A DNA stretch of 64,000 nt from Psammoneis japonica (GCA_008632985.1 QPGO01000298.1:1-64000); one strand, 5' to 3'. Positions 5,966 to 45,514 are shown, numbered from the stretch's first letter. The notes: generated by a model from the sequence alone, not told the origin. A program made the numbers and translations.

Positions 5966-5969
5966 TTGT

Positions 5970-9950: not shown

Positions 9951-10052
9951 TTCCTACCACGAAATTGACATCATCTGCGGCAGCTGTCACCGTTCGTGGC
10001 AACACGCACTAGCTAGATTCAAACAGTACAGTATATTGTGAACGAACCAACC

Positions 10053-14690: not shown

Positions 14691-15027
14691 GGCTTCAGCA
14701 GTAAAGGCTGTTGTAGGTGTTGTTGTCGTCGTCTTTGACACCGCAAAATCTTTTTTGCGTTGGTGCTACATACATGCTGCTGATGTTCTTTTTGGTCGTG
14801 ATGTGTCGTGAGATCTTTTGCCGTCGCGGTTTCCCGCGCTTTTTTCTTCAACGCAGAACGCATAGACGGACGGACGAGCCGGACTGAGTGACGTCATAGC
14901 TGTCAGAGACAAAGCAAACTCCTCACAACCAAAGTTCCGAAGTGGAAAAAGCGAGAGAGAAAACATGCAATGGCGTTGTCGACTGTTTTAGCCTCGTCCA
15001 TACATTAGAAAACGTCAAATACTCAAC

Positions 15028-16017
15028 ATGAGTCAGCAGAACGCCGCTAAAAGTGTATACGCGAGATCCCCATCCTTGGTTCGAGCCGTATCTCAGAGGT
15101 TTCCACCAACACGAGCCAACAAAATTATAGCATGGATTCTCGCGCTAATTATTCCTTGTTTGTTTTACATTGGACCAGCCATGGTGTTGCTCGTTCCAAT
15201 TCTTTTGTTTTATTCCGTAAAGGCATCGCTCATTTTACTCATAATTGACTTCATTCTCATGACGTATCCTCACAAACCGTGGCCACGCTTTCGAAGTATT
15301 TTTGAACTCTGGTATGAGCTTTTCGATTTGCATCATAACTTGATTGCAAACGATACGGCGCATCTCACTGAAGAAGAAATATCCCAGTTGCGTATTTGCG
15401 CCATGCACCCACACGGCGTGATTCCTTTCCAGGCTTTTCTTTGGATGGCGTTTTGCAGTCAATACTTGCCGACCCAATACGGCTTTGGCGCAGCCGCCAC
15501 GGTTGTGACGCGCATTCCGCTGCTGCGACAAGTGCTTTGCTGGGGATCGGCGGGACCTGCGAGTCGAGGTGTGCTCTACCAAAAAATGAGTCAAGGTCAA
15601 AATCTATTTTTGTTACCGGGCGGATTGGCGGAAATGTTTTCATCACGGCCCAAAACACACGTGGTCAAGGCCACTCGACACGGGCTCATGAAGCTAGCGC
15701 TGCAAACCGGCGCAAGTCTCGTTCCAGTTTATGTCTTTGGTGGAAATGATTTTTATCATCAAGTTGGATTTGAAGAGATTTCAAGACGACACCGGGCTGC
15801 ATTTATGTTTTTCTGGGGACAATACGGCTCGCCATTGCCCTATCCAGTCAAATGCAGCATGGTGTTGGGTGACCCCGTTGAGGCTGAAAAAGTGGCAAAT
15901 CCGACACCACAGCAGATCGAAGAGCTGCTAAAGCGATATGTGAATGAACTACAAAGAGTGTTTGATCAATACAAGGCTCAAGCAGGATATCCCAATGCGC
16001 AATTGGAGATTCGATGA
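15028..16017 (+). CDS. DGAT2: Diacylglycerol acyltransferase type 2
   Basis: N-terminal TM segments, MHPHGVIP motif, LLPGGLAE, GLMKLALQTGASLVPVYVFG, VLGDPV. Confidence 0.92.
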   Translation: MSQQNAAKSVYARSPSLVRAVSQRFPPTRANKIIAWILALIIPCLFYIGPAMVLLVPILLFYSVKASLILLIIDFILMTYPHKPWPRFRSIFELWYELFDLHHNLIANDTAHLTEEEISQLRICAMHPHGVIPFQAFLWMAFCSQYLPTQYGFGAAATVVTRIPLLRQVLCWGSAGPASRGVLYQKMSQGQNLFLLPGGLAEMFSSRPKTHVVKATRHGLMKLALQTGASLVPVYVFGGNDFYHQVGFEEISRRHRAAFMFFWGQYGSPLPYPVKCSMVLGDPVEAEKVANPTPQQIEELLKRYVNELQRVFDQYKAQAGYPNAQLEIR

Positions 16018-16365
16018 AAGATTGATCAGAAGAATTTCGCTCTGTAAAGTTGTCGGCTCTTCCGGTATATTGTCTTGTTGTCAATGCGGACTCTAGATTC
16101 TTTTGTATCTGAAAAGAAATCCAAACTAGTTGTACCATGCACTCACACGGCATTATCCCTAGATACAAGACCTTTCATTGATGGCGTTACCAGTAATGCT
16201 GACGCAATACCTGTAAGTCTTTGGTGCGCCTTTGCAGCAAATTGTGTAATAACACAGTAAAATGAAACAATCAATTTGGCTTTGAACTGTCTGACTCGAG
16301 CGCGTATCTACACTGGGCCGAGATGAGTAAACGTAACGCTAATTCTATGTCTGATCATTCCTATT

Positions 16366-16830
16366 CTATATCCAACGTGGCACTCTGCGGTTGTATTTCA
16401 AATAAACTGCGCCAAACTTATCTTCGAGCTGCTGTTCTTCTATAGGAATGTAATAATGATTCATTATCAAAGCATTTGCAACTGGAAACATGAAATGCCA
16501 CGCACAGTTTGTCACCAGTGCAGCTCCAGCTAGCGCAATGGTAATCCCAAGGTACATGGGATTCCGAGTCAACCCAAACTCTCCGTCCATGTGCAAGGGA
16601 GAATCTTGGGTCGGACTACCCATCATGGGGGTCTGGGTTCTCTTGAATGTTTGCTTTGAATCGATAGCAAACTTGGCACCCGCGAAAAAGAGGGGCGCGC
16701 CCAAGCACAAGCCCGGAATCCATGACGAAAAAAATCGTGCTGCCGACGTTCTTGTAAGCCATCCGATTGCCATGAGGGCGAGTGACGCCTTGTAGAGATG
16801 AGGTGGTTTGATTGACGGAACTACTGGCAT
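16366..16830 (-). CDS. Isoprenylcysteine carboxyl methyltransferase / PEMT-family membrane methyltransferase
   Basis: G.FGLTRNPMYLG motif, TM helices and C-terminal EEQQLEDKFGAVYLKYNRRVPRWI. Confidence 0.88.
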   Translation of the reverse strand: MPVVPSIKPPHLYKASLALMAIGWLTRTSAARFFSSWIPGLCLGAPLFFAGAKFAIDSKQTFKRTQTPMMGSPTQDSPLHMDGEFGLTRNPMYLGITIALAGAALVTNCAWHFMFPVANALIMNHYYIPIEEQQLEDKFGAVYLKYNRRVPRWI

Positions 16831-18975
16831 GATGCTGGAATGCAGAAGCTTGATTGACTTCACAAAATGTTGTGATTTGCGATGTTTTTGTGATCGTTCA
16901 GGAACGCAAAAGAAACGTGCTGTATAATAGGACTCCCACTGCTCGAGTGTGGGTGGCCCTAAGTAATTCTAAAAACCGTTAACGGCCGTTACTATGTAAT
17001 TTGGTAGTATTTTGGTACTCTATATATGAGGTATTTATGTAGAAATTACGTACGTACAATTAATAGGGGAAGCGAGCGTGGAGAAGAGACGACGCGAGCG
17101 AAGCACGAGCGAAGAGACCGAGCCGGAGAGAGACGCAAAGACAGCAATCCAACGATGTTGCAAGAGGGCGCAAAAGAGAGAAAAGATCTATTTGAGTTAG
17201 TACCATATCTTCAATAAAAAGAACAAAGCAAGACAACATTGGTGTGCACAAAAACTCACACAGAGAAGCACGGCACCAGCGCCTGAAAAATGACCACATC
17301 TGCGGTGAAATGGAACAACACAAGGAGGTGAGAACATACTTTTCTACAAATACAAAGCAACAACGAGCAAACGACCAATGTAAACTCACCAGTAGGGTCA
17401 AAACTTGGGGTGCCTGGATCGTCAACGGCGGGCAGGGAGGACAGATGGAAGAGAGGCAGTCTGGTGGTTCCACGGAGCAGGATGACAAAAGCAGGCGGCA
17501 AATCGGCATGAGCAATGGTAGAAAGTCGGAGCTTGGGATCGAGTGACTGGTCCGGTCCATACAAATCGTGGCAGAAGCTTGGAGAACGGAGGCAGCGCCA
17601 TGGTGGTACGGCGTGGACCGGGACAGAAGCAGCGCGCCATGGTGGAACGGGGACGGAGCCAAAAACGGTGACGGCGGCGGTGTAGACCCATGGACTTCGA
17701 TATCCCCATCTTCGATTCCTATGCATCAAGATACGGGACAAGGAGGTTCAAGGTGAGCGCCATTGCGAACGAGAACGGGGAAAAAGACGCATGATTCCAC
17801 GACAATCAGAACTCACCACATTTTGAGTCATTCTGACCCATTCTAGAGCCAGGACTCACTCACATGGCACGACCCAATGGTGTGTAACACTATCAAGCAA
17901 GGTAGGGGTCGGGAGGCGGTGTCGTACCGGTCAAATCGGCCAAAAGCGCCATTGTCGGAGGGAGCGGTGGTTGTCGATCGGCCGCTCTGGAAAAATTATG
18001 AGCCATCAACCTGACCGCACACCGTTCGGAGTCGCACAGAATTTCTCGGTACAAAATGTGCGCAAGTGTACGTCAGCATAAAAATCGTGCAGAAGGGGTG
18101 TAAGTAGAAACTTGCTGTCTCTCTGTGGACTACGAGGATTCTGCCGTTAAACTGTGCCAGCATGTGTGATTCTACGTGGTGGATTTGAATCAATCCCACC
18201 AACGTTTTTAAATTTCGATCGTAGTGACGGCTTTAGGTGCTGTGATGAACACACAAATAAGTTTGAATCAAATGTCATGTGTGGCGTTTACAATTTTGAA
18301 TGATTGCGCGACTGCCAGTCGGCACCAAAAACCGTCGCCAACAAGTAAACCTGCAGTACAAAAGTGCTCTTTTGCAATGCTTTGGCACTTCAGTCTTGCA
18401 CATGAAAGCGCTCACTGAGTGTTCAACGGTCGAATTATATGTGTAAAATCCTCACAGCGGGAGACCCTACACACGCTCCCGTGTGCACTCAACGCGCCTC
18501 GGTTACGACCTTCTCGTTGGGTTGCACAATGGCGAGAATGACCCCACAGGAGGTCGACGAGGGGCTCCCGGCCTCGTCGGTCTCCACCTCGTTGCTTGGA
18601 CCCTTCTCGTCGGGTTCGGCGGGGCCGAACCCTCCTCGTGGGCTCCACAAGTGCACAGGGCACACACCTGCAGAACCAGCACTGCAGGGTGCGCAGTTTG
18701 TTTCGCTCACACTTTCGGCCGACCGATCAACGGTGCGCAGATAGAAAGATGACAGCACGCTCTGCCTTTTACTCTGCTGTGCTTGTCACTTTCACATGCG
18801 CCCCATCTGTGCAGTTGCACATCATCCGCGCGCATCATCGCGTTTCAGGCACAGGCTCAGAGTCTGTGTTTCAGGAACATCGCGGAAGTGAGACGGATGG
18901 TGGCTCAAAATTTGTTGCCATGTCACCCTGGATTTGGCGAAACGCTCTGCAGAGCTTTCTGCACAAAACACACCA

Positions 18976-20090
18976 GAAAATGTGCCGTTCCGACGATGAT
19001 CCATTTCATCGGCACATCGACAGCCATGCCTTGCACCGTTCAGTGGTTGTTTGGATGCTTGCAGTTGAAGCGCACCATGGTGTTGGAATGGAGAAAATTG
19101 GCAAATGTTTGATTGATTTGTCCCTGTGACTGACCGAGTGCAAAATCATCACTTTTTCGACAGGTGCTGACATGTGTCGTTGATTGTCGTCATGCACTCC
19201 ACTCAGTCACACCCTGTGAGTTGTGACATGGAAGCTCGCGCACACTTTTCGTCATTGTCTTGCAATGGTGTTGTCTTTCTTGCAGCAAAACCATTGTTTC
19301 TGTCGTTTGCAAGAAATGGCTTTTCATTTTTTGCCGGAAATGTGCTCGCTCACAGATTGGGCTCTTCCTCGTTTTCACGCAGGTTCTCAGTCCATGTGAC
19401 ACCTTGGCATTGTTTGTTGGTGTCTGCATGAGGCGTGGTTGTTGGACCACAGGTCTGAGATTCTAGGCAAAGATGGTCTGGGGTCTCATTTTTGGATGGG
19501 AGTCGCTGTTTCATGACTCTTTTGGAGATTTCTGGACGGTCGTGTCGATTTCTTGCCGCTTGGGCAGATTTGAGTGCACTGGTGATGCTCTGACGGTGCC
19601 AATGAGTCAAGGAGGTGGGCTTGTTGGCTGACACTGTTGCTTGTTGTTGTTCAAACTCACTCAATGGGGCTTGCACTTTGTGCAGGATGTCGTCAGGATG
19701 CGACAGTGCGAGTGCCTCTAGAAATGGCATGAACAAACGCGGTTGCAGCAACAAGCACATGCACACTGGAGATGCAACAGAGTTTGCACTTTGCACAAAG
19801 GCAAAGTGGCGAGCACTCTTTGGCATGCCTCTCAGTGCAGAAAATGTGCCATTCCGATGATGATCTGTTTCATTGGCACATCAACAGCCATGCCTTGCGC
19901 CGTTCAGTGGTTGTTCGGATGCTCGCAGTTGAAGTGCACCATTGTGTTGGAATGGAGAAAATTGGCAAATGTTTGATTGATTTGTCCCCATGACTGACTG
20001 AGTGCAAAATCATCACTTTTTCGGCAGGTGCTGACATGTGTCATTGACTGTTGTCATGCACTCCGCTCCGTTGCACCCTGCAAGTCATCA
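18976..20090. repeat. About 250-bp direct repeat pair (18976-19226 and 19838-20090)
   Basis: The copies align end to end (aaaatgtgcc...gagaaaattggcaaatgtttgattgatttgtccc...caccctg). Differences are mostly TG/CA/CG exchanges. Confidence 0.9.
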
Positions 20091-23000
20091 AAGTGCCTGT
20101 GGAGTTTCCAAGACACACCATGAAGGCAGTTGCACGCCAACACAAGAGCCACTGAATGGACTCCATGCCAAAGTTCATTTCGTGGAGCACCAAGCAAGCT
20201 CCAACCCAAAGAGAGTGGGGCAACCACCTCTTGGTGGCTTTCTTGTCCTTTTTGGGATCAAGTTTGTAGACCTTGGCAGCAACTTCACGCATGTCTTCCT
20301 CAATTTCCTTGGAGGTGATGAGCTTGACATCTTGGCCAGCAGGCTCACACAAGGACAGAGGGGCAGTGGTGTCATTTTTGCCATGGATGCAAACAAACCA
20401 ATTGTTGATGCAGTGCACGGGCTTGACCAAGTCAAGACCCCCTTGAAGAAGGTTCAGAGGGAAGATCTTCTCTTCACCATGCTGGCCATTCTTCTGGGCA
20501 TGCCAGCATGCCCACATCTTGGCGACAGATTCGACCAGGATGTTCAAAATGTCAGCACCGGCAAGGCATTGGCAGTCCACAGACTCGATGCAGATGTCAT
20601 TGGGGCACCACACACGACTGGCTCTCTTGAAGTTAAGTGCCGGATGGTCAGGATTGGAGTGGCCAGACGTTTGTGCCCATTCTTGGAGACAGGTGCAACA
20701 AAATGGGGGCACACCTGACACCAGTCAGCAATGACACAAGCAAACCCATCTGGATCAGCTGCACACTTGACATCAGCACGCACCTTGGACTCAGCAAGCA
20801 TCTTGCCACCAAAACTCTTGTGATGGTTTGGAGCTTCATCAGATTGCTCAAGCTCCTTCTTGACAGCCATGAAGATCTTGGCCATTTTGGCATCGGATGG
20901 CTTGTCGAAGTGACAATTGCAACAGCGACCAAATGGAAATGTGATTTAGCCACATCCCTGACATGGCACAGGATGGAGCCTGACTTTGGCTGCTTGCAAA
21001 AAAACAGAGTTGCCCCCTGCCACATGCAAAGTGCACACAGCCAGTTGGTGCTGGTGGCAGTGCTCTGGAAGATGGTCCATGAGCATCTCTGGGTCATCCA
21101 GATCCCGTTTCACATCCTTGATGAATTTGAGCCAGTGGATGCATTGTGCATGAGCTGTCCCAAATGCGGTGGGGTCTCGGCCTCTGCAGGGGCCAGCAAC
21201 AACTCAGAGAACAGCCAAGAGCAGACCAGCTGCAGCAGCTCCTGACTCGGGAGGAAAAAGGTCCAGGTCTTTAGAAAAGGACACTTCTGATGCAGCTGAG
21301 CAACACGGACAGAATGAGGGAGGTGAGGGTCAGATGGACAGGAAACGCCATCCACCAGTTGCACGTCAATGCCAGCCCAGTGCTTGCCCTGTGAGTTGGG
21401 ACCAAGTTGAGCACAAGTGCAAAGCACAGACCAAATGCAAAGCCCATGCTGCCCCCAAAGAGACCAAGTTGTCTGACAATTCTGCCACCCTGCACCAGTC
21501 CAATTGTGATGGAGCAGGGACTTGCTGCCAAAGGTTCCAGGGGGGCATGACTGATGCTGGTCTCCAGATCTTGAGTCAACTGATTGGTCAAGTGCTTGAA
21601 GACATCCAAAGCCTGGATGCTGACATCCTGAGAGTCGCCAATGGCCTCACGGTGGTCCAGGATGCCGCCAAGTTGGAAGAAGGTGCAGATGATGTTTTGA
21701 ATGTCATTGAGCACATTCGCAGCAATTTCATGAGTGTTGCCATTGCTTGTGCTCCACTGCTTGCCACTCTTGCCGAAGGCTGCATGGCAGCAGCAGAGAA
21801 TCTGCTGCCAGAGAGCTGTCTCACAAAAGTTCTCAACAAGAGCATTGAAGATTAGCCTGACATTGGCAACAGCTGACACAACATCCAAAGAGTTGTGGGC
21901 ATGACCCTTGTTGCAGAGGGCAGATTTCTTGATCGACTCAGCAGTTGTGCTCTTGGAGTCAGAGGCAAGAGAATGCTTGGAGATCTCTTGACCTTCCTTG
22001 ACCATGTGGGAAGGCTCTGCATTGTCCACATGGGGAGTGAGGAAGTTCACAATGATCATCATGTTGCCCAAAAGTGTCATGACCAAAGCATTGGGAGGTC
22101 AATTGGCAAAACAAAAACAACAAAGGCCATCAGCAAAGGCCTTGTTTGCACAAGCAGGGCAGAAGGTGACAACTTGGATGAAGACATTCATCAACTTCCT
22201 GCTGTTCAAAGCTGCAGCAACAATCTGGCTGATGCAATGAGCCCTTTCAATCTTGCTCAATTCCTGAAGAGCATTGTTGAAGACTGGCTTGAGCACACAC
22301 AGAACAACAGCACCAGAGCCTGCTGCCTTGTGGCAAAAAGACAAAGAGCACTGACACTGAGTGCCAGCAGCCCTCTTCCTGATGTTCCCATCCTTCTTGG
22401 CATCGGGGCATTGAAGTTGATGGTGATGGGGCCTTGAGCAACCGCAGCTGCACCTGCCTGAGCTCCACTTGCATCATTTGCAGTCGGGGCTTGAATGGCA
22501 GCCCCCAAAGTCTGCCAGGCAATTTGGCGAATGTCCTGATGGTGGTTTGGACACTTGCACAACCATCCAAAAAGGGCGCAACTGCCTGAAAATTGAAAAT
22601 CATTGTCACAGAAGTTGCAAAAGTTGACATTCATGAAATCATCAACAACTTGGAGACCACTGGCAGCTTGATCAAAAAGGGGTCCTCCTTGGTCAAGAGA
22701 ACAACCCGAGTTGTGCTGTTGGATGCAATTGACAGCCTTCTGCCACATGTCTGGTGCCGGAAACTTGGCAGTCAGACTGGGACAATCATTTCCAGGAAAA
22801 AATTCTGGGGGGGAGGAGCAGCCGGGAGGGAGAGGAAACACCAGAGGGAGTGTTGAGGTGCTTGAGGGATGGAGGGTCATTGGCACCATTGGGTGGCAGA
22901 GGCCCTCAATGTTGATCAGAGGAGTCTTGATGCAAGGCAAGTTGCACACAACTGCATCGCCTTGAGGTGCCAGGGACACAAAGTGCCCCTTGAAATGTTG

Positions 23001-23370
23001 GCGAGTTCCTGTCATGGGAACAACTTCGCCAACAGTGTCAGACAAGCTGCACAAGTGCTTGACTTCATTGCCGCTGTTGACGAAGGGAACAGGCTTTGTA
23101 AATGGGATGATGCAACCTTTGCAAAACATGAGGAACTGGTCAAAATGACCATGGACAAAGTCCGCAATGGCAGAGCTGGCATTGCAATGGAGGGCGAGCT
23201 TCGTTTGGTGAGCAAAAGCTCAGCCTTGGTGCCCGACTGCAAAAAAGTGCTTGGTGGGAGTGTGCTCAATGGTGGCAAGGACAATGGTGGCCATGGTGGG
23301 ATGGAAGGCAGCAAGGAGACGAAGAGGCTGAGTGCAAAAAGGCAAAACCGGGGTTTTGTGAGAGAGAAAT
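20090..23370 (-). mobile_element. Tyrosine-recombinase (DIRS/Ngaro-type) retroelement remnant: gag-like ORF, RNase H tail and YR; no RT core recognised
   Basis: YR motifs LQEWAQ, WHAQKNGQHGE and PHSLWVGAC...IQWLLCWRATAFMVCL (HSLRxGA...RW.S.AF..YL with R->W/C and Y->C). RNase-H-like KHWAGIDVQLVDGVS followed by FFLPSQELL. Long upstream ORF remnants at 21271-23129. Confidence 0.75.
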
Positions 23371-23399
23371 GAGTTTTTGGGTGATGATCTCATGGCAGA

Positions 23400-26300
23400 A
23401 TTGCACAGAAATTGTGCTGAAAACTCATGACAAGTCAGCAGAATCAACTTTGCACACAACAGATCAGAAGCAACAAGAAAAGACCAAAGATGTTGTCAAA
23501 ACAGGTTGACTTGTGGGGGCACCCAGACTCAACATGATTGGAGATGGGTGTGGAGCAGAGAGCAAAGCCAACAGACTGCACAGATGTTGTGCTTGTGTTT
23601 TGACACAACAGATCAAAATCAACAAGGTTTGATTGAACTGCAATCCATGTTGGCTGGCTTGCGGAGGAACATTGGGATCCAGCATGATCTCAGAGGCATC
23701 TGAGGTGGCAAGACAACAGCCCCAATCCAAACCAACAGCGAAGCCTGGCTGCAATGCTCCGCACTCCAATGTGTGGATTGGAGTCAACAAAGACAGAACA
23801 GGCATCATGTGCAATCAGCTGGCTTGCGGAGATTCTCTGGATCCAGCAAAATCATGTGATTTAAAGAGGTCAAATGTGGTGGCCAGAGATCAACAAATCA
23901 AAGTCAAGCCAAGGATGCAGTTTTTGCAATGCGTGGACAATTGTGTGAACATGACAATCAACAGAAAGGAATTTTTCAACATTGTTGGCCCATGTCGGGA
24001 CACCGCAACTGACCCCATTGCTGCCGATCATCTGCCAAGAACAATGCGGGGAACTGGGGCGGCCTGGCCTCTCGTCATCGTCTGTTGTCTGTCCATGCAC
24101 CTTGCACTCCACGCTTCCATCACGCGGTGACTCCGCCAAGAGCACGGCCGCCCACAAGATGTCCTCCCCTTGTGCTTGGCCCATGTGCCACACCTTGTGC
24201 CATCTTGGCACCGATGACATGGTTGATCCAAGAGACGATGAGAGACAACACAAGAACACGAGACCATGATGGCAGCTGAGATGACCAACCATGACAAGTG
24301 GCTTGCTCTCATCAAGGATCATGTTCAAGAAAAATTAGGAACAGACAACAAGTGGGAGGAGGAGCGTTGGACAGGCTTCATTGAGGAAGCACTGTGGTCC
24401 ATGCACGACAATGATGTCATTGACGGGGACATGATTGGCACCACCAAGGGCCTCATCAAGTGCGGAGCATGACCAAGAAGCACCTGGTTGCAATGGCCAG
24501 AAAGCCTCCCAATGATGAAAAATTGTCCAGAAAGCTCAGGTCAGAAGGCGTGCCTCTAGTTGCATGTGCTTTGATGTTCGAAAAACGCATCTCGGCAGAA
24601 CAGAATGGTGAGTTTTTGCAGTTGTGAGCACTTGTGTCCCGAAACTGGCATCATCAATGTTGTTTTGACTCTCTCTTGTTTCTGTCTCGTGTTGCACTTT
24701 TGCAGCCAGACAAAGAGGCAGAGAAGGATCAAGCAGATCTCCCCTCAAAATTCAGGAAAGCACTGATGCTGACCGCCGAAAACCTGGCTCTTTCTGCTTC
24801 GCCATGGCACCGTCCCCTCGCCCAGCAGGAAGCAATGTCACACAACAGGCATCAGCAGTTTTCGAAAAAGAAGTGAACTCACACCTTGACAGCATCATGC
24901 ACCATGCTTTGCCTGGAAGCACTGTCCCAGATTTCAGAAACCGCGAAGTTGATGATGACCATGCTCACCTTGAACTGGACTCGTTTGCACATGTGACAAG
25001 AGACATGCTTGAAGAAGGAAAACCTGCTGATGTGTTGGGACTTTTGCGTGTGTTGCCACCTGGCATCAAGAAGAAGAAAGCAGTGCAAGCCCCATGGAAC
25101 AACCTCAAGCAGTTGCCAGGTGCTGGGGCTGTGAACCTTCAGAGGGAAGCTCAGAAGTGCATCATTGGAGAGACTTGTGGTGGCAGCAATGAAAAGAAAA
25201 TCAGCAAAAAGTGGTTGAATTAGAAAAGAAGATCTCCCTGATGAGGCTTCGCACTGAGCAGTCATCGGGGCATGAGACAACTGATGCAACAAGCTTGGTT
25301 GGAGCTGGGACTCTGTCTTTCATGAGTCCAATGGGAACGCAGCGAGCGAAGCATGCAACACATTGCAAGCACCTGGTCATGGACGCAATTTCAAAAATGG
25401 TGACACCAAATCTTTGGCGTCTTTTGCAAGCCTGTGCTTTTACATCTGCGTCCTTTTGATGACAGAGGGTGCCAACACAACATCTCTGTGGGAGTTGTCG
25501 GTGGGCTTGGACACCCTGCACACAGAACAAATGGCACAGGGAGAGATGCAAATGGTGCAGGGAGAGATGATGCAGAGATGCTGACAATTTTGAAGAGTGT
25601 GGAAACACAGCAGGTTGCACCCAAACTTCCTTTGGTGGAGGAAGATGAAGAGAAAGAGCTCTTGAAGGGAAAACAGTGATGGGATTTGCGTTTGAAATGG
25701 TGGTGTGTTCTTCATGCCACAGAGAGGCGAGTCGCTTTTGCTGGGCTTTGTCAAAAGAAAGTGGGGAACAATGTGAAAGCACTTGTCAACACTGATCCAA
25801 AGTTGCTGTTGCTGTGTCTCTGTCTTCTGTTGCAGCAAATGATTCGCAGAATTGGTGTCATGCAACTCTTGTGGTGTGCAGCTGCAAGAAGAAACTGTCA
25901 GCCTGTTCGACACTGTGTGCAGAGTGGACGGACAACGGCCCCGTTGCAGACCATTTAAATGGATCCTGATCAATCCTGATCACTTCCTTTTGTCACCAGC
26001 ACTCACAACAGGTTGTGACCCTTTTGCTGCTTCCTTTGCCCATTGCCAAGTCTGCTCTTGCTGAGATTTTGTGAGCGGGCTTTTCTCCACCACCTGGAAT
26101 CGAGCCTGCAATCATGGACTTGCTTGACCCACTTTTTGGTTTGTTGAGTCCTCTTTTTTTGGACCATGGAATCTGCACCAGGCCTGCATCATTTTGACCA
26201 CACACCCTCATGAGCAACATTCACCATGGCCCACAAGAACAGCAAACCAGCCAATTTGACTGAGTTGGCTGACATGTCAGCTTTCTTTCTGTCCCCATCT

Positions 26301-27490
26301 CACCCAAATGAACCTGATGTGACACTCACACAAGTGCAGGAGCAACACAGCAGAAGCATGTCTCTGCATTGCAGCTGTTGCAATCTGCCATGCAAGGAGA
26401 TGAAGATTGCTTGTGAGGTTCAGATTGGTGTGCAAAAAGCAAATGATGACAACTGTGTTGAAGAGGCACCATGCCCCCTCACTGTTGGCTGTTGTCAGAA
26501 TGGAAAAGCCAACAAACAATGTCATGGAGCCCAAGCTGTTTGTTCCCAATCAAAGTTGCCTGCCCCCATGACAACTTGATCTTTTTTGTTGACATTGATG
26601 ACAAGGTCAAAATCATGCATGATGGCAGCCAGCAACTTTATTTTTCAAGGCATGCTGAACAAAAAGACAACAATGACTGGCACTGTCAAGTGTCAAGTGT
26701 GACAACATGGATGCAGCAGCATTTGCCATGGCTTTTGTGTGGGCTGAGAATCATCCCAACATGTGCTGGGACACCAACAATCTGAATGTGGTGCCAATGT
26801 CTGAGACATTCAAACATGACAAAACTTGGAAAATTCAACTTTCATTTAAATCGTCACTTGTTTTGTTCTGCGTTGCACTGCCATCTTCACTGCACAACCT
26901 TGGGTGCACTCACCTGTCAGTTGGTGTTTTTTTTTCATGCTTGTGTGGTTTCTCCACCCAACAATCTGCTGAACCACAACTGGCTTGCAAACTCCCCTGT
27001 CAGCTGGGTTTGCTTCTTTGTCAGATGTTCCCATCTACCCTCACCATCATTCAGCATGATTGCTTTGGGTCACAATGATGAGACAAATGTTCTTTGACCC
27101 ATTGCAGTTTGTGGCCCTGGTGTGAGGGTGCAAGGAAAGGCCAGAGCACAAAACTCTCATTCATTGTTGTGTGCTTTGGTCATTGGCCAGTGATTGCCAG
27201 TTGCTGGTGGGTTCAGAAATGATGCAGTCAATTGTGACAGGGAACTCAACATTTCTTTGGGTTGTCAAATGTTTGACCCATTGCAGACATTTTTTCACTC
27301 CAGGTGTGAAACGCATGTGTTGAGGTTGGATGTTTCATCTGTCCTTTTTACATCGCCGTGTGGTTTGCACAAGCAAATCTGATGGACTTTCCCCCAATTT
27401 TTGTTTCGCATTCCCTCAGATCTGTTTGTTGTAAACTGCCAGCCATTGACAATGCTGCTTGGAGAGCAGTGTGGGAAATGAAAAAAATCT
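23400..27490. other. Decayed, TpA/CpG-depleted coding-like sequence (plus-strand remnants at about 23630-25680); family not identified
   Basis: Protein-like stretches (DKWLALIKDHVQEKLG..., FEKEVNSHLDSIMHHALPG...) are broken by TGA stops and frameshifts. Confidence 0.4.
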
Positions 27491-27494
27491 TCAG

Positions 27495-29810
27495 GAGGCA
27501 ATTCTTTGGTGAGAAAATGATCGCAAACTGTGCATGACCAGTTTTGATGCCTTGCTGTGCTGCATTTTTTTGTTTCTTCCATCACATCTGACTGCCCTTG
27601 ACAAGTTCCTACATTCTTCATGGCACAAAGAGTTCACACCAAAAAAGAATGGTGTTCTAACTCCTTCATTTTTTACAAGAAAAATTGGGGGAGAACTGAC
27701 TTCACACATGCATTTTTTGCATGATCAGCTGTTTCAAAGATCAACTGATTTGTTGACTTTTGTGGGAGTCTTGAGTTTGTTGCGCATGCTGGGGTTGAAA
27801 TGGCAGCTTCAGAGCATGAAGAAAGTGGTGCAACTGAGTCTTTTGAAGAGCAGAAGCAGAGAAAACAATCAAATGTGACCAGCTCTGTTCCAACAGCTTC
27901 TCAATTCCCACGAACCCTAAAAATTGAGTGCAGAATCATCATTTTGTCAGTGTCAAAATTTGGTTTTTTGTTGCGACCCAAAAGCATCATCCACAACAAC
28001 TTGAAGCACATTCAATGCATCACAAGAAATGCACCAATGCATCATGAAGATTCACATTGTGGTTTGCAGCAAGCATCAAGTGAGCAGAGCTGAGAGTTGC
28101 AGAGACTCCTGTGTCACAATCTGATGAAGAGGAAAAGAGGCATCAAAAACACCATGAGTCAAAAGGCCACCCATGAGGCACAACAAACAGCAAAAATCAA
28201 AATTTCCATCACACCATCACATGGACCACAGTCCAGTTGATCCATTTTGGCACTCTTGCCTTTTCTTTGTCTTTACAGCCATTGTTGTGAGGATGGTCAA
28301 ATTCATGTTGGTGGTGCGGCACAATTGTTGGTGAGCGCAATTTGTCGTTGTTGACATGAAAAAACATGTCTTTGTTTTGGAGCTCAACTTTCTCATGTGT
28401 GTTTGGCACCAGGTGTGTGTGACATGTGGAAACACACAGAAAACCTTGTGATTTGTCCAAACGTTTCTCACCTGAGAGGAAAACACATTTGCAGTGTGCA
28501 GCCATGGTGGCACAACAAAGGCCAGAAAACAAAATTCTTGCTGCATGCGTCCATGCTGGCCAACATGGTGAGCTCGTGTGGCGCACGCACCTGTGGCACC
28601 ACACAGAGGCAACTCTTTGGTAAGAAGATGATTACAAACTGTGCGTGACCAGTTTTGATGCCTCCTTGAGCTGCTTTTTTTCTGTTTCTTCCATGCATCT
28701 GACTGCCCTTGACAAGTTCCTGCATTCTTCATGGCACAAAGAGTTCACACCAAAAAAGAATGCTGTTCCAACTCCTTTTTCACAATAAAAATTGGGGGGA
28801 AGAACTGACTCAACACATGCATTTTTTGCACAATCAGCTGTTTCAAAGATCAAGTGATTTGTTGACTTTTGTGGGAGTCTTGAGTTTGTTGCATGCCAGG
28901 GTTCTTGAAATGGCAGCTTCAAAGCATGAAGAAAGTGGAGCAATTGAGTCTTTTGAAAAGAAGAAGCAGAGACAACAATCAAATGTGACCAGGAGCTCTG
29001 TCTCAGAGTCAAATAAAACAGCTGCAACACTCAAACATTGCCAATGCTGTCATTCCACTTAACAAGATTGCACCTCTTGGACTCATCCAGCCAATTGCCA
29101 TGAACCCTCAAAATCAAGTGCAGAGTCATTCTTTTGTCAATGCCAAAATTTGTTTCTTTCTCGTGACCCAAAAGCATTGTCCACAACAACTTGAAGCACA
29201 TTCAGTGTGTCACAAGAAACACAGGCTGCCACCAATGCATCATGAAGATGTGCACTGTGGTTTGCAGCAAGCATCAAGTCAACAGAGCTGAGAGTTGCAA
29301 AGACTCCTGTGTTGCAATCTGACAAAGAGGAAAAGAGGCATCAAAAACATCATGAGTCAGAAGGCCATCCATGAGGCACAACAAATGGCAAAAATCAAAA
29401 TTTCAACCATGCCATCACATGGACCACAGTCTTGTTGATCTGTTTTGGCACAGTCACCTTTTCTTTGTCTTTGCAGCCATTGTTGTGAGGATGGTCAAAA
29501 GTTCATGACAGTGGTGCCATGTCACCATTTTTGGTGAGTGCAATTTGTGGTTTTGTTGACATGAGAAAACATGTCTTTGTTTTGGAGCTCAATTTTCTCA
29601 CATGTGTTTGGCACCAAATGTGTGTGTGACATGTAGAAACACATGGAAAACCTCATGATTTGTCCAAAAGTTTCTCACCTGGGAGGAAAACATTTGCAGT
29701 GTGTGGCTGTGGTGGCAAAACAAAAGGCCAGGAAACAAAATTTTTGCTGCACGCATCCACGCTGGCCAACATGGTGAGCTCGTGTGATGCCCACCTGTGG
29801 CACCACACAG
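27495..29810. repeat. Tandem duplication of a 1.1-1.2 kb unit (about 27495-28605 and 28606-29810)
   Basis: Shared blocks throughout, e.g. gactgcccttgacaagttcc, catggcacaaagagttcacacc, gaggaaaagaggcatcaaaa and gctggccaacatggtgagctcgtgtg. Confidence 0.9.
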
Positions 29811-31292
29811 CGCAGCATTGTTCATGTGCACCATGGAATCATGCATCTCAGCCCCACTGCAAGCACAAACCATGCAGTGGTTTGCAGCTCAAAATCACCA
29901 ATGCACATGATTGTTGCTCCAAACTGTCAATTTGGTCATGGCACACCAAAAATGACCCGACAGACAATGGCTGAAAATGCAGAAGGCAATGAGATGTCTG
30001 CAACAACAACTTTGTGCATCACTCAATGCAACAAAGTCTGTTTGACAACATGCATGATCAACTTCAGTGGTTTGCTGCATGTCTTTGCACTGCTGCCAGC
30101 TTGTTGATTGTCAGCCTCATTTTTGTGCTTCAATTTGGCATTTGACCCTCTGGCACAAATTGCACATGCAAAGGTCTGCACCAAAAGCCAAGACAGCTGA
30201 GTTTGGGTCTGCCCCTTTGGAGAGCACTGCAAACTTCTTCTGCTGTGTTGTCCTTGATGGCATTGAGAAGGACAAACCCAAACTCACATGTCTCTGTGCT
30301 GGTGGGAACTCCAACCTGCACAGCAAGGTCAGACTGCACTGCAGTTGCTTGAGTTGGCAATGACTCAAGTCTCAGCAGCTGCTGTCTGTGACTGTGCCTT
30401 GGACTTGAACTTCTCACTGGCAGCTGCAGTTGCATCAGTCATTGTCAGTTGATGCTGTTGCCACACCTGTTGCTGCGTCTCAGAAGATTCTTGCTTTGAT
30501 GGCATCAGCAAAGTCTGGCAATGTGCACTCAAGGAACCAAGGTGATTTTGTCTGAGGCTCTGCAGGAAATTGTCACACTTGTTGCCTGGCACGGGAATGG
30601 ATGCAAGCCCCTGTGACCGTTGCAACACCATCCATGCAGCCACATGCACTGTTTCCATGTGGGGCAAGCTCATGCATTTTTGACACAACTTTTGACACAA
30701 CTTCAAAATTTGTCACAACTCTCAAGGTGCACGTCATCTCTGGGCATGTGAAACATGTCTGTGAGGCTTCCAGTGCAAATTCTACACACGGCAAAAATGC
30801 AGTGTTGGTCCACCTGTTTTCAAGAGTTTGGCTGTGATCCAATTCTTCCACCGGGTCACGTGGAAAGAGTGGGTGGACTTCTTGTGTGACTTAGCAAAGA
30901 GGGGCATGGAGAGAAAACAACGCCAGATGAGTGTCGATTGCGTGTTCCCTTCCTGAGCACAAGATCAAGTCATGCAAACCTTCTTTCTCGTTTCTTGTCG
31001 CAGCATTTATTTCTCCATGAAAAGAAGAGTTAGCTCATGTTCGCTGAAAGAGCAACCCCGGTCAAAGTGCACGGTAGGTTCCTAGACCCAAGACGTAAGA
31101 CAAAATCTATAATTGTAATCCCCTAAACTTCTAAACGATGCTCTACCTAGAACTACCCCGATACTTATTTTTACGTCAATATTTTGTGAGTTCACAAAAC
31201 CACAGTCACCCGCAATTCTGCGATTCTCGAGCTCGTCTAGCTCGGTGAAGATGGTCTGCTTATCGTCACGCAAAAAAGTGAAGTTTCAATAT

Positions 31293-32345
31293 TTACATTG
31301 TTATGCAGCCAGCACAGGACATGTTGGTCCACTGAAATGTTCCTTGAGACGAACTAATTGGTGACAGAGTAGCCGTTGGAAGCAATTCTAACGGTGAAGA
31401 AAAGTAATCCAATACATGTTGAGGGGACAGTTCTTTTCGATCCTCCTGGGAAAGGCCATTTAGGTATAAGCGCACTTCCGACTCCGACACAGACCTAGGT
31501 CGATGTGGGTTCAGCATAAAGGCTTTGACTAGTTCATCACTTTCCCATTTCATGCTCAAATGTTGGTCCCAATTGATCCCAAAGTCCTGATGAATAACAT
31601 GCCTACCCACTGTTGCTCTAAGGTTTTTCACCTCCGCGTAAGGCAGCATCGGTTGGATGCCCTCCAGCCCATTTAGAGTCAGCAGGAAATTCGCACTCTC
31701 TTCGTTCGGAGTCAAAATGACCGCAACTATGTTTCTTCCACGAATTGCAGTTTTGATGGCCCGTGCAAGGTTTTCATCCACCCGGTTGATTCCTTTTGGC
31801 ATGAACTCATCGAGAAAAAGATAGGACGTCGGTACTCCTGCTGGGCTAGCCAATTCTCTGGCAATCAGATGAAGCAATCCAGAAGGGGGGTTTGCATAGT
31901 CTTTTAGGTCAAGGAGGGCCAACATATGCTCAAGGTAACTCATGTCAGAATCAGTTGGACTGAAGCAAAGGCCGTTGTTGATCCCGTTCCTGACGTACAT
32001 CTCGATATGGGCCACACAGGCCGTTGTTTTCCCCATGCGAGGAGGGACGTGTGCAACGTAGACGGTTCCTGGACTGGTACATCGCTCTCGAATGTATTTC
32101 ATAATTGGCGAACGGGCGTATTCGGGACGTCGTTTGTATTGGTCCACGTCACCGGAAAACAAGAAGCGCTTTTCCAGACCCATCTTGACCTTGCGCTTTG
32201 CATAAGGGTTGTTGTCCTTCCATGGAACCCGAATTAACTCCTCCACTGCTTCTTCCGTGAGTTTCGTCAGCACCGCTGACCCGACCACTTCACCTGCACA
32301 CGAAAGGAGAGAAGCGTGCATGACAGGGAGGTTACAGTGCAGCAT
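31293..32345 (-). CDS. P-loop NTPase-fold hypothetical protein
   Basis: 350-aa ORF with Walker-A-like VAHVPPRMGKTT and Walker-B-like YLFLDEF. Normal composition. The 5' end may involve an intron. Confidence 0.75.
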   Translation of the reverse strand: MLHCNLPVMHASLLSCAGEVVGSAVLTKLTEEAVEELIRVPWKDNNPYAKRKVKMGLEKRFLFSGDVDQYKRRPEYARSPIMKYIRERCTSPGTVYVAHVPPRMGKTTACVAHIEMYVRNGINNGLCFSPTDSDMSYLEHMLALLDLKDYANPPSGLLHLIARELASPAGVPTSYLFLDEFMPKGINRVDENLARAIKTAIRGRNIVAVILTPNEESANFLLTLNGLEGIQPMLPYAEVKNLRATVGRHVIHQDFGINWDQHLSMKWESDELVKAFMLNPHRPRSVSESEVRLYLNGLSQEDRKELSPQHVLDYFSSPLELLPTATLSPISSSQGTFQWTNMSCAGCITM

Positions 32346-32628
32346 TCAAACGGAAGACGATTTGATCGGCATGGCCGCGATGTCTTTTGAGTTTTCTTCT
32401 TTCGCTCATGTGGAAAGAGCCGTTATTGTGTAATGATACAGTACATACAGCACTGTATGTACAGTACCGACAGGGACAATTGCGACGAACCAGCATTTGT
32501 ATCCTCAGTAACAAATACTAATAATATGAGTTAGCCGGGGTAGGGCTAGTTGGTCGCGCACGTTTGGGTTCGATGTGACCGTCCAACTAGCCATACCCTG
32601 CAGGAAAAGCTGTTGGTGGCGCGCGAGC

Positions 32629-34822
32629 GAGCCCCTGGCAGATTTATATCTTATTCATTATATTTTTATATAAATGTACTCACATTAATTTATGCATTTG
32701 TACACAAATGCTAATAGTAACAGGAAAAATCCTGAACCACATTCTCCCCTAAAACTCTAACCACCAAAAACAGAGGGTGCGGAAGCGCACTTTTTGGAAG
32801 ACTGCGCACACACCAAAACATCACGCGTTTTGATGACTCGACCATGACGACCTCCCGTTCTTCGTCCCCCACACCACCTGACGTGTCCCCGCCTGCCATG
32901 TCTGATGCGGCAGCCCCTCCTGCATTGGCCGGTGCCATTGCACCCGCTGTCATTGCCCAAACACAGCCGATTTGCCATCCGGAAGATTTGTGCTTCTGTT
33001 CGCCGGATCCGGTGCATGAAACACAAATGCAGCTCGGGGATTAGTCTGCTCCTGCAATTGCGTTCCCAGAGAAACTGGACTTTCATTTGTGCCATCGTGT
33101 TGTGGAAGGTGCTGATGAGCCGTCTCTCAAACGGTCTGGGGCGCAGCTCCCAAACCATGTCAAAAAACAAAAGAAACAATGAAGGCATGGGTTCCGTGAG
33201 CAGCAATGTGCTGGTTGACACTCCTTGCATGGGCATGGGCATGGGCATGGCAGAGGAGCATCTGGGAGGCATGGCAATGGCTTTCTCAGGATGATTCCTG
33301 AGCAGAACCTCCTCCATCTGGAGGTGATTGAGACTTGGTGTCAAGATGAACCGCAGCAACATGTGAAGGAGGATGCAGCCAATGGAATGCGGGCAGAGAA
33401 GGTGCCGGCATGCAAAGCAGCAGCACAGCTGTCGACATGGCACTGGTTTTGAAGGTCCAACAGTGACAAACACAGTGCGTGTTTGCCAAAAGCACGTTGC
33501 CACCTGCCTCCATTTTAGCAACTTACAAAAACAGCACAAAACTGTGAAAGCATGCCTGCCATCTAATTGTCACTCCACATCAGGTTTCTAATTTACAGAG
33601 AACTGCACAATGTGTCTGCACATTCTAAAGATTGGACTGCACTCAAGAGCTGGCCAAGAGGCACTGTTCACGTCCATTGATGTTGCAGGCCAGCAAAGGG
33701 CAGGCAAAGAGCCCACTGAATGCTTGTGCAACATGGGTGTTCACGCTTGCAATGTCTGAAAAATTGATTGCCATGTCTTCACCTGACGGGCTGCAAGTTT
33801 CCTTGAACCGAAACCAGAAAACCATGAACAAACATGGAAAGCACAAGAGCCACAACACCAACACTCGTCCATCAGCAGGCTGAGGTTGCATGGGTTTCCT
33901 GGTTTGCTGTCATCCATTGTGCTCCTTCCAAAGCAAAAACAGTGACAGTGTCAACAGTGCCTGCAGCAGTGAGAGCAGGATCAACAGTGTGGGCATGCCA
34001 GGGGACCGAAGTGCAGGTGCGGCATTGGAATTCATGATGGCATCTGTGGCAGGCGGTGGGGCGAGAATGAAAGAAGTGTGAGCCTTTGGCATTTCATTGT
34101 GGACATCATTGGCAAAAGCCAATGACAGCATCAGCAGCACCTGCGGCAATGAGGGTGGGAGCAACAGCATCGGGCATGCCAGGGGACCAAAATGCAGGCA
34201 CGGCATTGGAATGTGTGACAGCATCTGTGGCAGGCAGTGGGGGGAGAATGAAAGAAGTGTGAGTCACTGGCATTTCTTTGTGGACGTTGTTGGCAAAAGC
34301 CAATGACAGTGTCAACAGTGCCTGCGGCAGTGAGGGCAGGAGTGACAGTGTCGGGCATGCTGGGGGCCCGAAACGCAGGTGCGGCATTGGAATTCGTGAT
34401 GGTGTCTGTGGGAGGTGGTGGAGCGTTCAAACAACAGTGTGAGTTTGCAGCATCTTATTTTGCATGTGTCGCACCCACGAGAACCAGAACAATGACATTG
34501 CCTGTTGCGTCAGTGTCGTCATCAATGGTGTCAACAGGATCAGCGTCCTGGGAAGGCGATGGGGAAGAACCACGAGGCATCATCATGGTCGAGTCGTCAA
34601 AACACGTGTTTTTTGTGTGGAGAAAAAGAGCTGCCAAAAGTGCATTTCCGTGCCCTCGGTTTTTGGTAGTCAGAGTTTTGGGGGAGCTGTGGAGCAGGAA
34701 TTTTTGCTTGTGGAACACACACATGCATGTGGATGTTAACATTGAAACTCAACACACGGCGAAGCCATGCGCGCGCAACCACGAACACACACACAGCTCC
34801 CCTGCCACAGGGGTGGAGCCCA
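32629..34822. mobile_element. MULE-like insert with long subterminal inverted repeats and a probable 9-bp TSD
   Basis: Inverted repeat of about 140 bp at 32720-32870 / 34560-34706. Flanking 9-mers are cgcgcgagc (32620-32628) and tgtgcgagc (34823-34831); the uninterrupted copy has it once. No transposase motif recognised. Confidence 0.6.
33932..34425. repeat. About 181-bp tandem repeat, 2.7 copies
   Basis: Recurring gcaaaa...tgacag...cggcattggaa...tctgtgg...gagaatgaaagaagtgtgag. Confidence 0.9.

Positions 34823-45469: not shown

Positions 45470-45470
<1 letters not shown>

Positions 45471-45514
<44 letters not shown>
45471..45514. repeat. (GA)n microsatellite; shorter ones at about 45857, 48500 and 61557
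   Basis: Direct observation. Confidence 0.95.

Follow-up and report, generated by a model that had tools for sequence, protein, structure and literature searches.

In the ascomycetes, RIP converts CpA to TpA and so enriches TA; the two copies of a duplicated sequence are both hit, and stop codons appear. A hypermutation restricted to TpA has been reported for the chlorarachniophyte Bigelowiella natans, in which integrated NCLDV and virophage DNA accumulates A>G/T>C changes (Mettrop et al., bioRxiv 10.64898/2026.01.13.699255, 2026). According to the main text of that preprint, 230 of 231 mutations in the hypermutable regions of mutation-accumulation lines were A>G/T>C, all of them at TpA, and the de novo rate in these regions was ~1,000-fold above background. 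The long-term trace is TpA depletion together with CpA+TpG enrichment (cut-offs Rho ≤0.43 and ≥1.52); Rho is 0.45 in the NCLDV region, the genome as a whole contains 124 clusters comprising three or more 1-kb windows each, and TpA-poor CDS are enriched for RT and DDE domains. An ADAT2-like deaminase was proposed, unproven there, and, as cited in the same text, reports of activity on DNA are limited to engineered TadA and to ADAT2 of amphioxus and trypanosome. An initial annotation of the diatom DNA analyzed here (a stretch of 64,000 bp from Psammoneis japonica, referred to as the window) had put forward TpA erasure as an undescribed process. That part of the claim has to be withdrawn, given the TpA-only A>G/T>C hypermutation of B. 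natans; the diatom window is very probably a new, saturated instance of a process reported once before, in an unrelated alga. No report of TpA erasure in diatoms was found in the literature outside subscription journals, and the words "diatom," "Phaeodactylum," "stramenopile," and "CpG" do not occur in the main text of the preprint.

In the segment 18230–31070, TA was counted 46 times, whereas base composition predicts 861 occurrences (o/e 0.053); 200 mononucleotide shuffles of the segment, used as the null, gave a mean of 860.5 (sd 21.3) and a minimum of 807. Resolved per kilobase between 19001 and 31000, TA o/e was 0.00–0.09, that of CG 0.08–0.59, and those of TG and CA 1.5–2.1, compared with 0.35–0.80 for TA and ~1 for CG in genic kilobases. 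The hand counts of the initial annotation (one TA in 21001–21600, 15 in 15061–15360) proved exact when repeated. A two-state HMM run on TA positions delimited eight TA-erased blocks with sharp edges, which sum to 40,405 of the 64,000 bp (63% of the window) and have a TA o/e of 0.04–0.12 and a TG and CA o/e of ~1.5–1.9. The main block contains 34 TA in 12,503 bp (o/e 0.04; CG 0.30, TG 1.77, CA 1.80) and spans 18505–31007; thus, the depletion first described for 18230–31070 is genuine, but its left edge had been placed ~275 bp too early, and 18234–18504, just left of the block, still holds 10 TA. The other TA-poor regions named at the outset were recovered at 1–702 (TA o/e 0.07, continuing past the start of the window), 3786–9692 (TA 0.05, CG 0.42), 32759–41519 (with small TA-normal islands at 35034–35481 and 40026–40291), 45188–51880 (TA 0.05, CG 0.20), and 56130–62682, which is less advanced (TA 0.12, CG 0.64). 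All six host genes with a credible Pfam match lie outside the blocks. Two TA-normal gene islands were defined by HMM and Pfam: 9693–18504, which carries HA-domain, PA/RING, DGAT2, and PEMT genes (TA o/e 0.58, CG 0.99) and served as the internal control, and 51881–56129, with a gene for a light-harvesting protein and unmutated paralogues of block sequences (TA o/e 0.77). Homologues of the DGAT2 protein assign the window to a diatom.

Compared with TA-normal DNA, the blocks have lost 37 TA per kb (41.5 to 4.2) and 34 CG per kb (58.3 to 24.5) and have gained 67 CA+TG per kb (145.8 to 213.1). The gain is balanced by the two losses, total YpR is constant between the two types of DNA (245.6 versus 241.8 per kb), and the remaining dinucleotides and the base composition are the same. 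Decay of CpG overlaps with TA loss in the same blocks (CG o/e 0.20–0.65) but explains no more than roughly half of the rise in CA+TG, and in every block of the window the loss of TA is more complete than that of CG. In a metagenomic contig carrying a relative of the RT element described below (L024), TA is erased at a CG o/e of 1.00, with 58 changes of CG to TG/CA, relative to an intact relative (L012), against 53 in the reverse direction. TA erasure is therefore separable from CpG decay, and the original argument that deamination of 5mC is insufficient holds. On each strand, TA-free DNA contains 1.8 TAA and 1.2 TAG per kb, normal DNA 9.3 and 9.4. Because conversion of TA to TG/CA cannot create an in-frame stop codon, proteins are disabled by missense; because TA-free DNA is almost devoid of TAA and TAG, long false ORFs arise on both strands, which is a hazard for annotation; and because the GC content of the blocks is unchanged, they are missed by GC-based scans.

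The direction of change could be read from sequences present both inside and outside the blocks. The segment 34826–35449 (+), inside block 32759–41519, is a copy of the TA-normal segment 55509–56067; at the 45 TA sites of the latter, it now reads TG/CA in 23 cases and retains TA in eight, and no TG/CA site of the outside copy reads TA inside the block. Likewise, 51483–51764 (+), inside block 45188–51880, is a fragment copy of a gene-like ORF at 52648–52915, of whose 12 TA sites nine are now TG/CA and none is retained, alongside 13 of 21 CG sites now reading TG/CA. Taken together, these host-derived pairs show TA to TG/CA at 32 of 57 sites and the reverse at none. Repeats lying within blocks have diverged mainly by exchange of CA for TG: such pairs account for 20 of 39 adjacent double mismatches between the tandem duplicates 27495–28606 and 28606–29810 (+) of the main block, for 18 of 21 in a 181-bp tandem repeat at 33933–34421 (+), and for 3 of 3 and 6 of 10 in two further in-block comparisons. 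Both the claim that the signature was imposed after insertion and the claim that gene copies carry it are thus borne out, the latter by fragments of host origin.

A degraded, non-LTR-like reverse-transcriptase element at 3897–6007 (−), inside block 3786–9692, allows the same comparison at the protein level. It has a weak Pfam RVT_1 match, the only match in depleted blocks among 135 ORFs of at least 110 aa across the window, and 258 homologues with RVT_1 as sole domain; tblastn aligns it with residues 506–1196 of a relative of 1,242 aa. At the DNA level, a single match of 47 bp to 80 metagenomic relatives was obtained, so polarity was taken from protein columns. The element has two Tyr in 779 aa where 18.6 are expected, all four consensus-Tyr columns are changed (two to His, two to Cys), and its YxDD motif reads CVDD. 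A TA-free family consensus, which would have undermined the reading, was not seen: relatives contain ~2.3–2.4% Tyr, and 75 of the 80 metagenomic loci have a TA o/e of 0.41–0.88. Contig L024 provides an independent replicate of the conversion. At 147 TA sites of L012, it reads CA 57 times, TG 49 times, and still TA seven times (106 of 147 converted), with one change toward TA; of 40 aligned Tyr, 22 are Cys, 16 are His, and none is kept. A strong GC skew at 4–6 kb was considered as a sign of strand-specific mutation and rejected, as the sense strand of the intact L012 is likewise CA-rich (504 CA versus 87 TG). The LINE, YR, copia, Penelope, and TIR elements listed initially are reduced to this one confirmed RT element: no further class emerged from the main block (18.2–31.1 kb), where none of 140 ORFs of at least 55 aa had a credible Pfam match and the longest, of 320 aa (22260–23219, −), had no homologue among 3,170 candidates. 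Transposon nature within the blocks is thus established for one RT element; beyond this, repeat depth is elevated over parts of the main block.

Both DNA strands are affected about equally, as the ratio of CA to TG outcomes was 13:10 in 34826–35449, 5:4 in 51483–51764, and 57:49 in L024. The flanking context is not neutral. Surviving TA differed between RTAY and YTAR (Fisher p = 4e−21), and fitted per-strand survival depended on the 3′ neighbor (T 0.09, C 0.21, G 0.40, A 0.67), an estimate that could be biased by surviving TA that is newly created; in L024, YTAY gave 26 TG to 18 CA, RTAR 1 to 7 (p = 0.02). T-A-pyrimidine is thus the preferred target. The whole is best explained by old, silent, largely repeat-derived diatom DNA in which TA was converted to TG/CA in situ by a process of the B. 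natans type, with a deaminase as the most likely agent; we consider this very probable. Nearly every 5′-TA-3′ step in the blocks has undergone a transition, in place in the chromosome, either of A to G, leaving TG, or of T to C (A>G on the opposite strand), leaving CA, and ordinary CpG decay is superimposed. The process would be the same in kind as the TpA-restricted hypermutation of B. natans. Most likely, a polynucleotide adenine deaminase recruited to silenced chromatin would act on DNA, turning the adenine within T-A-pyrimidine into inosine, which would be copied as G. Proteins are altered by missense, for example from Tyr to Cys/His or from Ile to Thr/Met, and TAA/TAG are removed, leaving the long false ORFs. 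The deaminase step and the targeting to chromatin are what we infer here.

Since TA is a palindrome, action on the A of T-A-Y is indistinguishable from action on the T of R-T-A, and the observed context fits the latter equally well. At the R-T-A steps of silenced DNA, a TET/JBP-type oxidase might instead produce 5-hydroxymethyl- or 5-formyl-uracil, whose mispairing with G would result in T>C. In dinoflagellates, which also belong to SAR, 5-hydroxymethyluracil takes the place of thymine, with a preference for TpA, and 5-formyluracil favors A:T to G:C mutations. 5-Hydroxymethyluracil itself is only weakly mutagenic, though, and among the matches listed for this base and diatoms all were, judged by their titles, on dinoflagellates. 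We regard this thymine chemistry as unlikely.

Repeats raise another option, namely that duplicated DNA is recognized by pairing, as in RIP, and mutated at TpA regardless of chromatin state. Parts of the main block are indeed repeated in the genome (depth of 200–900 in several block bins of the public run X1, versus a baseline of ~60), and tandem as well as dispersed repeats occur within the blocks. However, only one member of each paralogous pair is mutated, the outside copies 55509–56067 and 52648–52915 having kept their TA; the most repeated stretches, 17.0–18.3 kb and 32.3–33.0 kb (depth 2,300–4,000), are TA-normal; and long stretches of the main block are single-copy at ≥90% likeness. A homology trigger is accordingly improbable, somewhat more so than thymine chemistry.

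A retroelement among the affected sequences could also suggest ADAR-like A-to-I hyperediting of its transcripts, with the edits made permanent when the RNA was reverse-transcribed ahead of insertion. ADARs are not known outside animals, and they favor G as the 3′ neighbor. Like the process described here, ADAR editing yields clustered A>G changes with a preference for a 5′ U (Mettrop et al., 10.64898/2026.01.13.699255, main text), and in L024 and L051, another metagenomic contig, depletion stops near the end of the element. ADARs, however, act on RNA, whereas in the diatom window resident DNA is affected whatever its origin: promoter-like and gene fragments of the host carry the signature, tandem copies have diverged in place, the strands are equally affected, and T or C is favored over G on the 3′ side. 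Hyperediting is thus a very remote explanation of the blocks, and conversion in the chromosome remains the preferred one.

Near-total conversion and sharp edges are also what would be expected if heterochromatin carried a modified T or A that is systematically miscalled during sequencing or assembly. K-mer contigs of run X1, which carries no recorded library type and may be the assembly's own sample, and is hence not fully independent, spanned all 30 bins at a depth of ~55–70, equal to that of the flanking genes; pieces of 0.9–1.4 kb over the main block differed from the assembly at one to nine positions each, and one contig crossed the right block edge (30740–32550) without a single difference. 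The TA-free sequence and its boundary are therefore reproduced, and a base-calling artifact is unlikely in the extreme, all the more so as the choice between TG and CA at a site varies between paralogues and repeat copies, the signature recurs in contigs of unrelated metagenome assemblies, and the process in B. natans was measured with Illumina reads (10.64898/2026.01.13.699255, main text). Among 25 variants listed between X1 contigs, six set TG/CA against TA and 12 set TG/CA against CG; they are unpolarized, undated, and from one sample. A second run, X2, covered the genes patchily and left most of the main block uncovered, which is not evidence on expression; a third, X3, gave no coverage. 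Finally, the notion that the elements lacked TA from the outset, by family composition or selection against TA and without any mutation process, can appeal to the mild under-representation of TA genome-wide (o/e ~0.6) but is already contradicted by the window copies, which lose TA only within blocks, by the columns and the Tyr- and TA-containing relatives of the RT element, and by the L024/L012 pair.

If in situ conversion of the B. natans type is the correct reading, TpA hypermutation is no curiosity of one chlorarachniophyte; it shapes most of the non-genic DNA of a 64-kb diatom region as well as transposon copies in unrelated marine metagenomes. The enzyme could then be approached by comparison, via genes common to carriers of the signature and missing in non-carriers, and there are diatom species amenable to genetics. 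Should the agent be a natural DNA adenine deaminase, it would be of interest to the base-editing field. More tentatively, and with doubt nearly balanced by expectation, TpA editing may be a DNA defense that is domain-wide, stop-free, widespread in marine SAR protists, and saturated in diatom heterochromatin, its carriers being diatoms, chlorarachniophytes, and the hosts of metagenomic contigs L024 and L042/L051/L064. It would then form a third class of eukaryotic hypermutation defense, alongside RIP and APOBEC, and there would have to be a natural enzyme capable of adenine deamination at T-A-pyrimidine within double-stranded chromosomal DNA.

Set against the known systems, CpG decay via 5mC is present in the same blocks and yields the same products, TG and CA, but it cannot remove TA; it accounts for about half of the gain and leaves the TA loss without CG loss in L024 unexplained. 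Like RIP, the diatom process is a hypermutation by transitions at specific dinucleotides; in both, repeats are degraded and blocks of altered composition remain. As the initial annotation had recognized, it is nevertheless the opposite of the fungal process: TA is erased instead of enriched, only the in-block copy of each duplicate is mutated, no in-frame stop codon can arise, and the high-copy repeats at 17.0–18.3 kb retain their TA. TadA/ADAT2 and the base editors derived from TadA convert A to I, read as G, after U or T, and the natural site of TadA, U-A-C, is compatible with the T-A-Y preference in the blocks; the natural enzymes, though, act on tRNA. Closest is the process in B. natans as described in the preprint, with which the diatom window shares TpA to TpG/CpA substitutions on both strands, TpA depletion with CpA+TpG enrichment, and the occurrence of these changes in discrete regions, which in B. 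natans are foreign or silent DNA within an otherwise normal genome. The two differ in lineage (a chlorarachniophyte there, a diatom here) and in extent, as TA o/e is 0.04–0.12 over 63% of the diatom window, compared with the Rho of 0.45 in the NCLDV region. CpG decay coincides in the diatom, whereas CpG goes unmentioned in the preprint's main text. The regions in B. natans are foreign, whereas foreign origin in the diatom blocks is shown for one RT element, and host-derived duplicates are also affected. To the process known from B. natans, the diatom window and its metagenomic counterparts add a preference for T-A-pyrimidine, the lack of new stop codons, and a TA loss that can be dissociated from CpG decay.

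Per-kilobase dinucleotide counts of the window fell into two states. Kilobases with recognizable genes contained 20–58 TA (observed/expected ratio [o/e] 0.35–0.80), with a CG o/e of ∼0.9–1.3 and a TG/CA o/e of ∼1.0–1.5. In each kilobase of 19001–31000, there were 0–7 TA (o/e 0.00–0.09), with a CG o/e of 0.08–0.59 and TG and CA o/e values of 1.5–2.1. The erasure of TA that had been noticed in the initial annotation is confirmed: 18230–31070 contains 46 TA versus 861 expected (minimum in 200 shuffles, 807), and the accompanying hand counts, 1 TA in 21001–21600 and 15 in 15061–15360, were exact on recount. A two-state HMM, run on TA positions over the whole window, called depleted segments at 1–702, 3786–9692, 18505–31007 (the main block), 32759–35033, 35482–40025, 40292–41519, 45188–51880, and 56130–62682, summing to 40,405 of 64,000 bp. 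The TA-poor stretches listed earlier agree with these segments within ∼100–370 bp. The left edge at 18230 had been set ∼275 bp too far to the left, since 18234–18504 still contains 10 TA. On its right, the main block ends abruptly, TA being sparse until 31031 and dense from ∼31075. Two small TA-normal islands (35034–35481 and 40026–40291) lie within depleted sequence, and an (AG)n microsatellite of 23.5 copies (45470–45515) is located close to where a depleted block begins.

When the depleted and the normal segments of the window were each pooled, TA was found to drop from 41.5 per kb in normal to 4.2 per kb in depleted DNA (−37.3) and CG from 58.3 to 24.5 per kb (−33.8), CA+TG rose from 145.8 to 213.1 per kb (+67.3), and the sum of all pyrimidine–purine steps changed by about 0 (245.6 vs 241.8 per kb). 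The remaining dinucleotides shifted little, and base composition was the same (whole window: A 16,766, C 15,261, G 15,849, T 16,124). Thus, the blocks resemble ordinary DNA whose TA and CG have been replaced by TG/CA via transitions; because the two replacements shift GC in opposite directions, GC content does not reveal them. CpG decay as the full cause was rejected, as it accounts for just half of the CA+TG gain. Furthermore, in each block TA had been lost more completely than CG (e.g., TA o/e 0.12 and CG o/e 0.64 in 56130–62682), which indicates that TA conversion was faster than CpG decay.

The TA-free sequence was also present in public reads. X1, a sequencing run compared as Logan contigs and possibly derived from the assembly's own sample, contained 73% of the sampled words of 14500–24499, and its contigs covered 30 of 30 bins of 13001–33000. 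Its depth did not differ between single-copy parts of the main block and the flanking genes (∼55–100 in both), pieces of 0.9–1.4 kb within the block showed 1–9 differences each, and a single 1,811-bp contig (30740–32550) spanned the right edge without any difference. Because k-mer contigs at this depth imply accurate reads, the TA-free sequence is unlikely to stem from modified bases that were systematically miscalled, although the library type of X1 is unrecorded. Among the 25 variants listed within 18.4–24.1 kb, the window had TG/CA and the other contig TA in six, 12 were TG/CA versus CG in either direction, and seven were other changes. A contig of a second run (X2) matched just 79 bp (30806–30884) before continuing into loosely similar sequence with TA where the window has CA; an unmutated paralogue may exist elsewhere in the genome.

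The direction of change was evident from paralogues. The within-block copy at 34826–35449 has a TA-normal counterpart at 55509–56067, 45 aligned TA of which read CA (13), TG (10), TA (8), or otherwise (14) in the copy; no TG/CA of the counterpart reads TA there. Of all parts of the copy of 55802–56067, the island 35034–35481 is the most conserved (85% identity); it retains 8 shared TA and may represent a patch that is younger or has not been fully mutated. Likewise, the 12 TA of 52648–52915, part of a gene-like ORF, read TG (4), CA (5), or otherwise (3) in the within-block copy at 51483–51764, none being kept, and its 21 CG read TG (8), CA (5), CG (2), or otherwise (6). Repeat pairs with both copies inside depleted blocks differed mostly by transitions, and adjacent double mismatches predominantly placed CA opposite TG (20/39, 3/3, 6/10, and 18/21), as predicted if the two copies independently resolved one ancestral TA (or CG), the first to TG and the second to CA. 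Thus, the changes arose once the copies were in place.

The degraded reverse-transcriptase (RT) element at 3897–6007 (minus strand), which has 258 relatives in a library of 1.84 billion proteins and aligns with residues 506–1196 of a 1,242-aa relative, has lost its tyrosines. Its two ORFs contain 0 and 2 Tyr versus 6.7 and 11.9 predicted from relatives; all four consensus-Tyr columns hold His (2) or Cys (2), and the catalytic YxDD motif reads CVDD. Consensus Cys (6/6), Trp (5/5), and Gln (4/4) were kept. Paralogue polarity, the doubles between within-block repeats, and this Tyr loss together support the earlier proposal of a host-imposed, post-insertional TpA→TpG/CpA process. Segment 3786–6250 has a plus-strand GC skew of +0.5, the sense strand of the element being very C-rich and G-poor. 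A second mutation process is disfavored as its cause, since the sense strand of an intact metagenomic relative (L012) is likewise CA-rich (504 CA vs 87 TG); the skew instead seems to be characteristic of the element family.

A metagenome scan queried with an alignment of 16 relatives of the RT element returned 80 loci, 75 with a TA o/e of 0.41–0.88 and five at or below 0.33 (L024, 0.11; L070, 0.21; L064, 0.28; L074, 0.31; L042, 0.33). L012 (98–7638 of its contig) is an intact-looking element with two intact ORFs of 1,267 and 1,264 aa, containing 44 and 46 Tyr, and offers a suitable unmutated comparison for the TA-erased L024 (3,571 bp aligned, 75% identity). Substitutions polarized within this family took the direction claimed initially: 106 of 147 TA of L012 read CA (57) or TG (49) in L024, seven were kept, the rest were other, and just one TG/CA of L012 reads TA. 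With L013 as the outgroup, the L024 branch carried 17 A>G after a 5′ T and nine T>C before a 3′ A, the L012 branch 0 and 0. None of 40 aligned Tyr of L012 ORF2 was kept (Cys 22, His 16, Asn 1, Gln 1), whereas 44–100% of its other residues were. CG exchanges were balanced (58 in one direction, 53 in the opposite one), and the CG o/e of L024 is 1.00; TA erasure is therefore possible without CpG decay. Another family is represented by three 97% identical contigs (L042, L051, and L064; GC 0.60, TA o/e ∼0.2 within the element), comparisons of which gave 74 and 51 differing positions, 37 and 37 of them in the TA/TG/CA/CG exchange classes, with 9 and 9 CA/TG doubles. In L051 (2401–3033), the final 600 bp have a TA o/e of 1.24, against ∼0.2 within the element; depletion thus ends near the element's end. 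Together, these patterns place the signature in at least two further, metagenomic element lineages.

Survival of TA depended on its flanks. Relative to normal DNA, survival in the blocks was 0.000–0.035 in RTAY contexts and 0.13–0.44 in YTAR contexts (counts 7 vs 266 and 80 vs 173, respectively; Fisher p = 4e-21). A model in which the base 3′ of A determines a single survival factor for each strand roughly fitted the ten contexts, with factors of 0.09 (T), 0.21 (C), 0.40 (G), and 0.67 (A), which are approximate because some surviving TA may be newly made. In L024, 0 of 55 RTAY sites kept TA, and product choice (TG:CA 26:18 at YTAY, 1:7 at RTAR; p = 0.02) obeyed the same rule, so that T-A-pyrimidine is the preferred target, which can equally be written as purine-T-A on the opposite strand. 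DNA adenine deamination at T-A-pyrimidine is tentatively put forward as the mechanism, with slightly less than even confidence; the probability left over falls to other or unknown chemistry, apart from a route via thymine modification, which seems unlikely. ADAR-type RNA editing misfits the in-place changes, the equal effect on both strands, and the context.

In the genetic code, TA→TG/CA makes no in-frame stop, TGA arising in this way only from TAA. Hence, the process harms proteins via missense changes and removes TAA/TAG. Per kilobase and strand, the blocks contain 1.8 TAA, 1.2 TAG, and 23.7 TGA, normal DNA 9.3, 9.4, and 18.0; the depletion of TAA/TAG explains the numerous long ORFs on both strands of the blocks.

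All six credible Pfam host genes (HA domain, PA/RING, DGAT2, PEMT, HMG box, and light-harvesting protein) lie in TA-normal segments, and RVT_1 was the sole Pfam domain found in a depleted one. The DGAT2 ORF (14992–16014) has 90 relatives at E ≤ 1e-20, the best matches at 61–67% identity; named relatives among the better matches are diatoms (Epithemia, Entomoneis, Attheya, Skeletonema, Thalassiosira, Nitzschia, and Dactyliosolen). The light-harvesting (Chloroa_b-bind) gene (54406–55298, minus strand) is divided between two reading frames that overlap, which suggests an intron or a frameshift. In the paralogue pairs, the within-block copy alone was mutated, and the most repeated stretches covered by X1 (17.0–18.3 and 32.3–33.0 kb; depth 2,300–4,000) are TA-normal; thus, repetition alone is not the trigger. 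Position in the block, presumably reflecting chromatin state, would fit better. The TA-normal stretch 17003–18336 (X1 depth 2,300–3,300 vs a baseline of ∼60) represents an element or gene family of high copy number that lacks TA erasure despite adjoining a depleted block; a Pfam search with its ORF 17063–17725 (minus strand) gave no match. A TA-normal, MITE-like 105-bp repeat with an internal inverted repeat occurs at 32524–32628 and 55411–55514 (94% identity), and the X1 depth of ∼4,000 over 32344–33000 indicates that it is very abundant in the genome.

Fungal RIP runs in the opposite direction and mutates both copies, in contrast to the within-block copy only. A full-text literature search, in which subscription journals were outside the scope, returned no report of TpA erasure in diatoms. 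The process is, however, not undescribed, as had been supposed, and the initial interpretation is overall partly supported: a preprint reports the same kind in Bigelowiella natans (10.64898/2026.01.13.699255). In mutation-accumulation lines, 231 of 302 nuclear point mutations fell in integrated NCLDV and virophage regions, 230 of the 231 being A>G or T>C and all 230 on TpA; rates in these regions were ∼1,000-fold over background, with hypermutation in some lines only (10.64898/2026.01.13.699255). The authors also describe TpA-poor, CpA+TpG-rich clusters, as well as CDS with an enrichment of RT and DDE domains, and propose a candidate ADAT2-like deaminase; the main text contains no occurrence of "diatom," "stramenopile," or "CpG" (10.64898/2026.01.13.699255). 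The host here is a diatom rather than Bigelowiella, and with the window a phenomenon that was first reported in 2026 gains a new instance from a second major lineage, one in which it is saturated. New relative to the preprint are the preference for certain flanks, the sparing of reading frames from new stop codons, the separability of TA erasure from CpG decay, the mutation of fragments derived from the host, and the reappearance of the signature in element copies from metagenomes.
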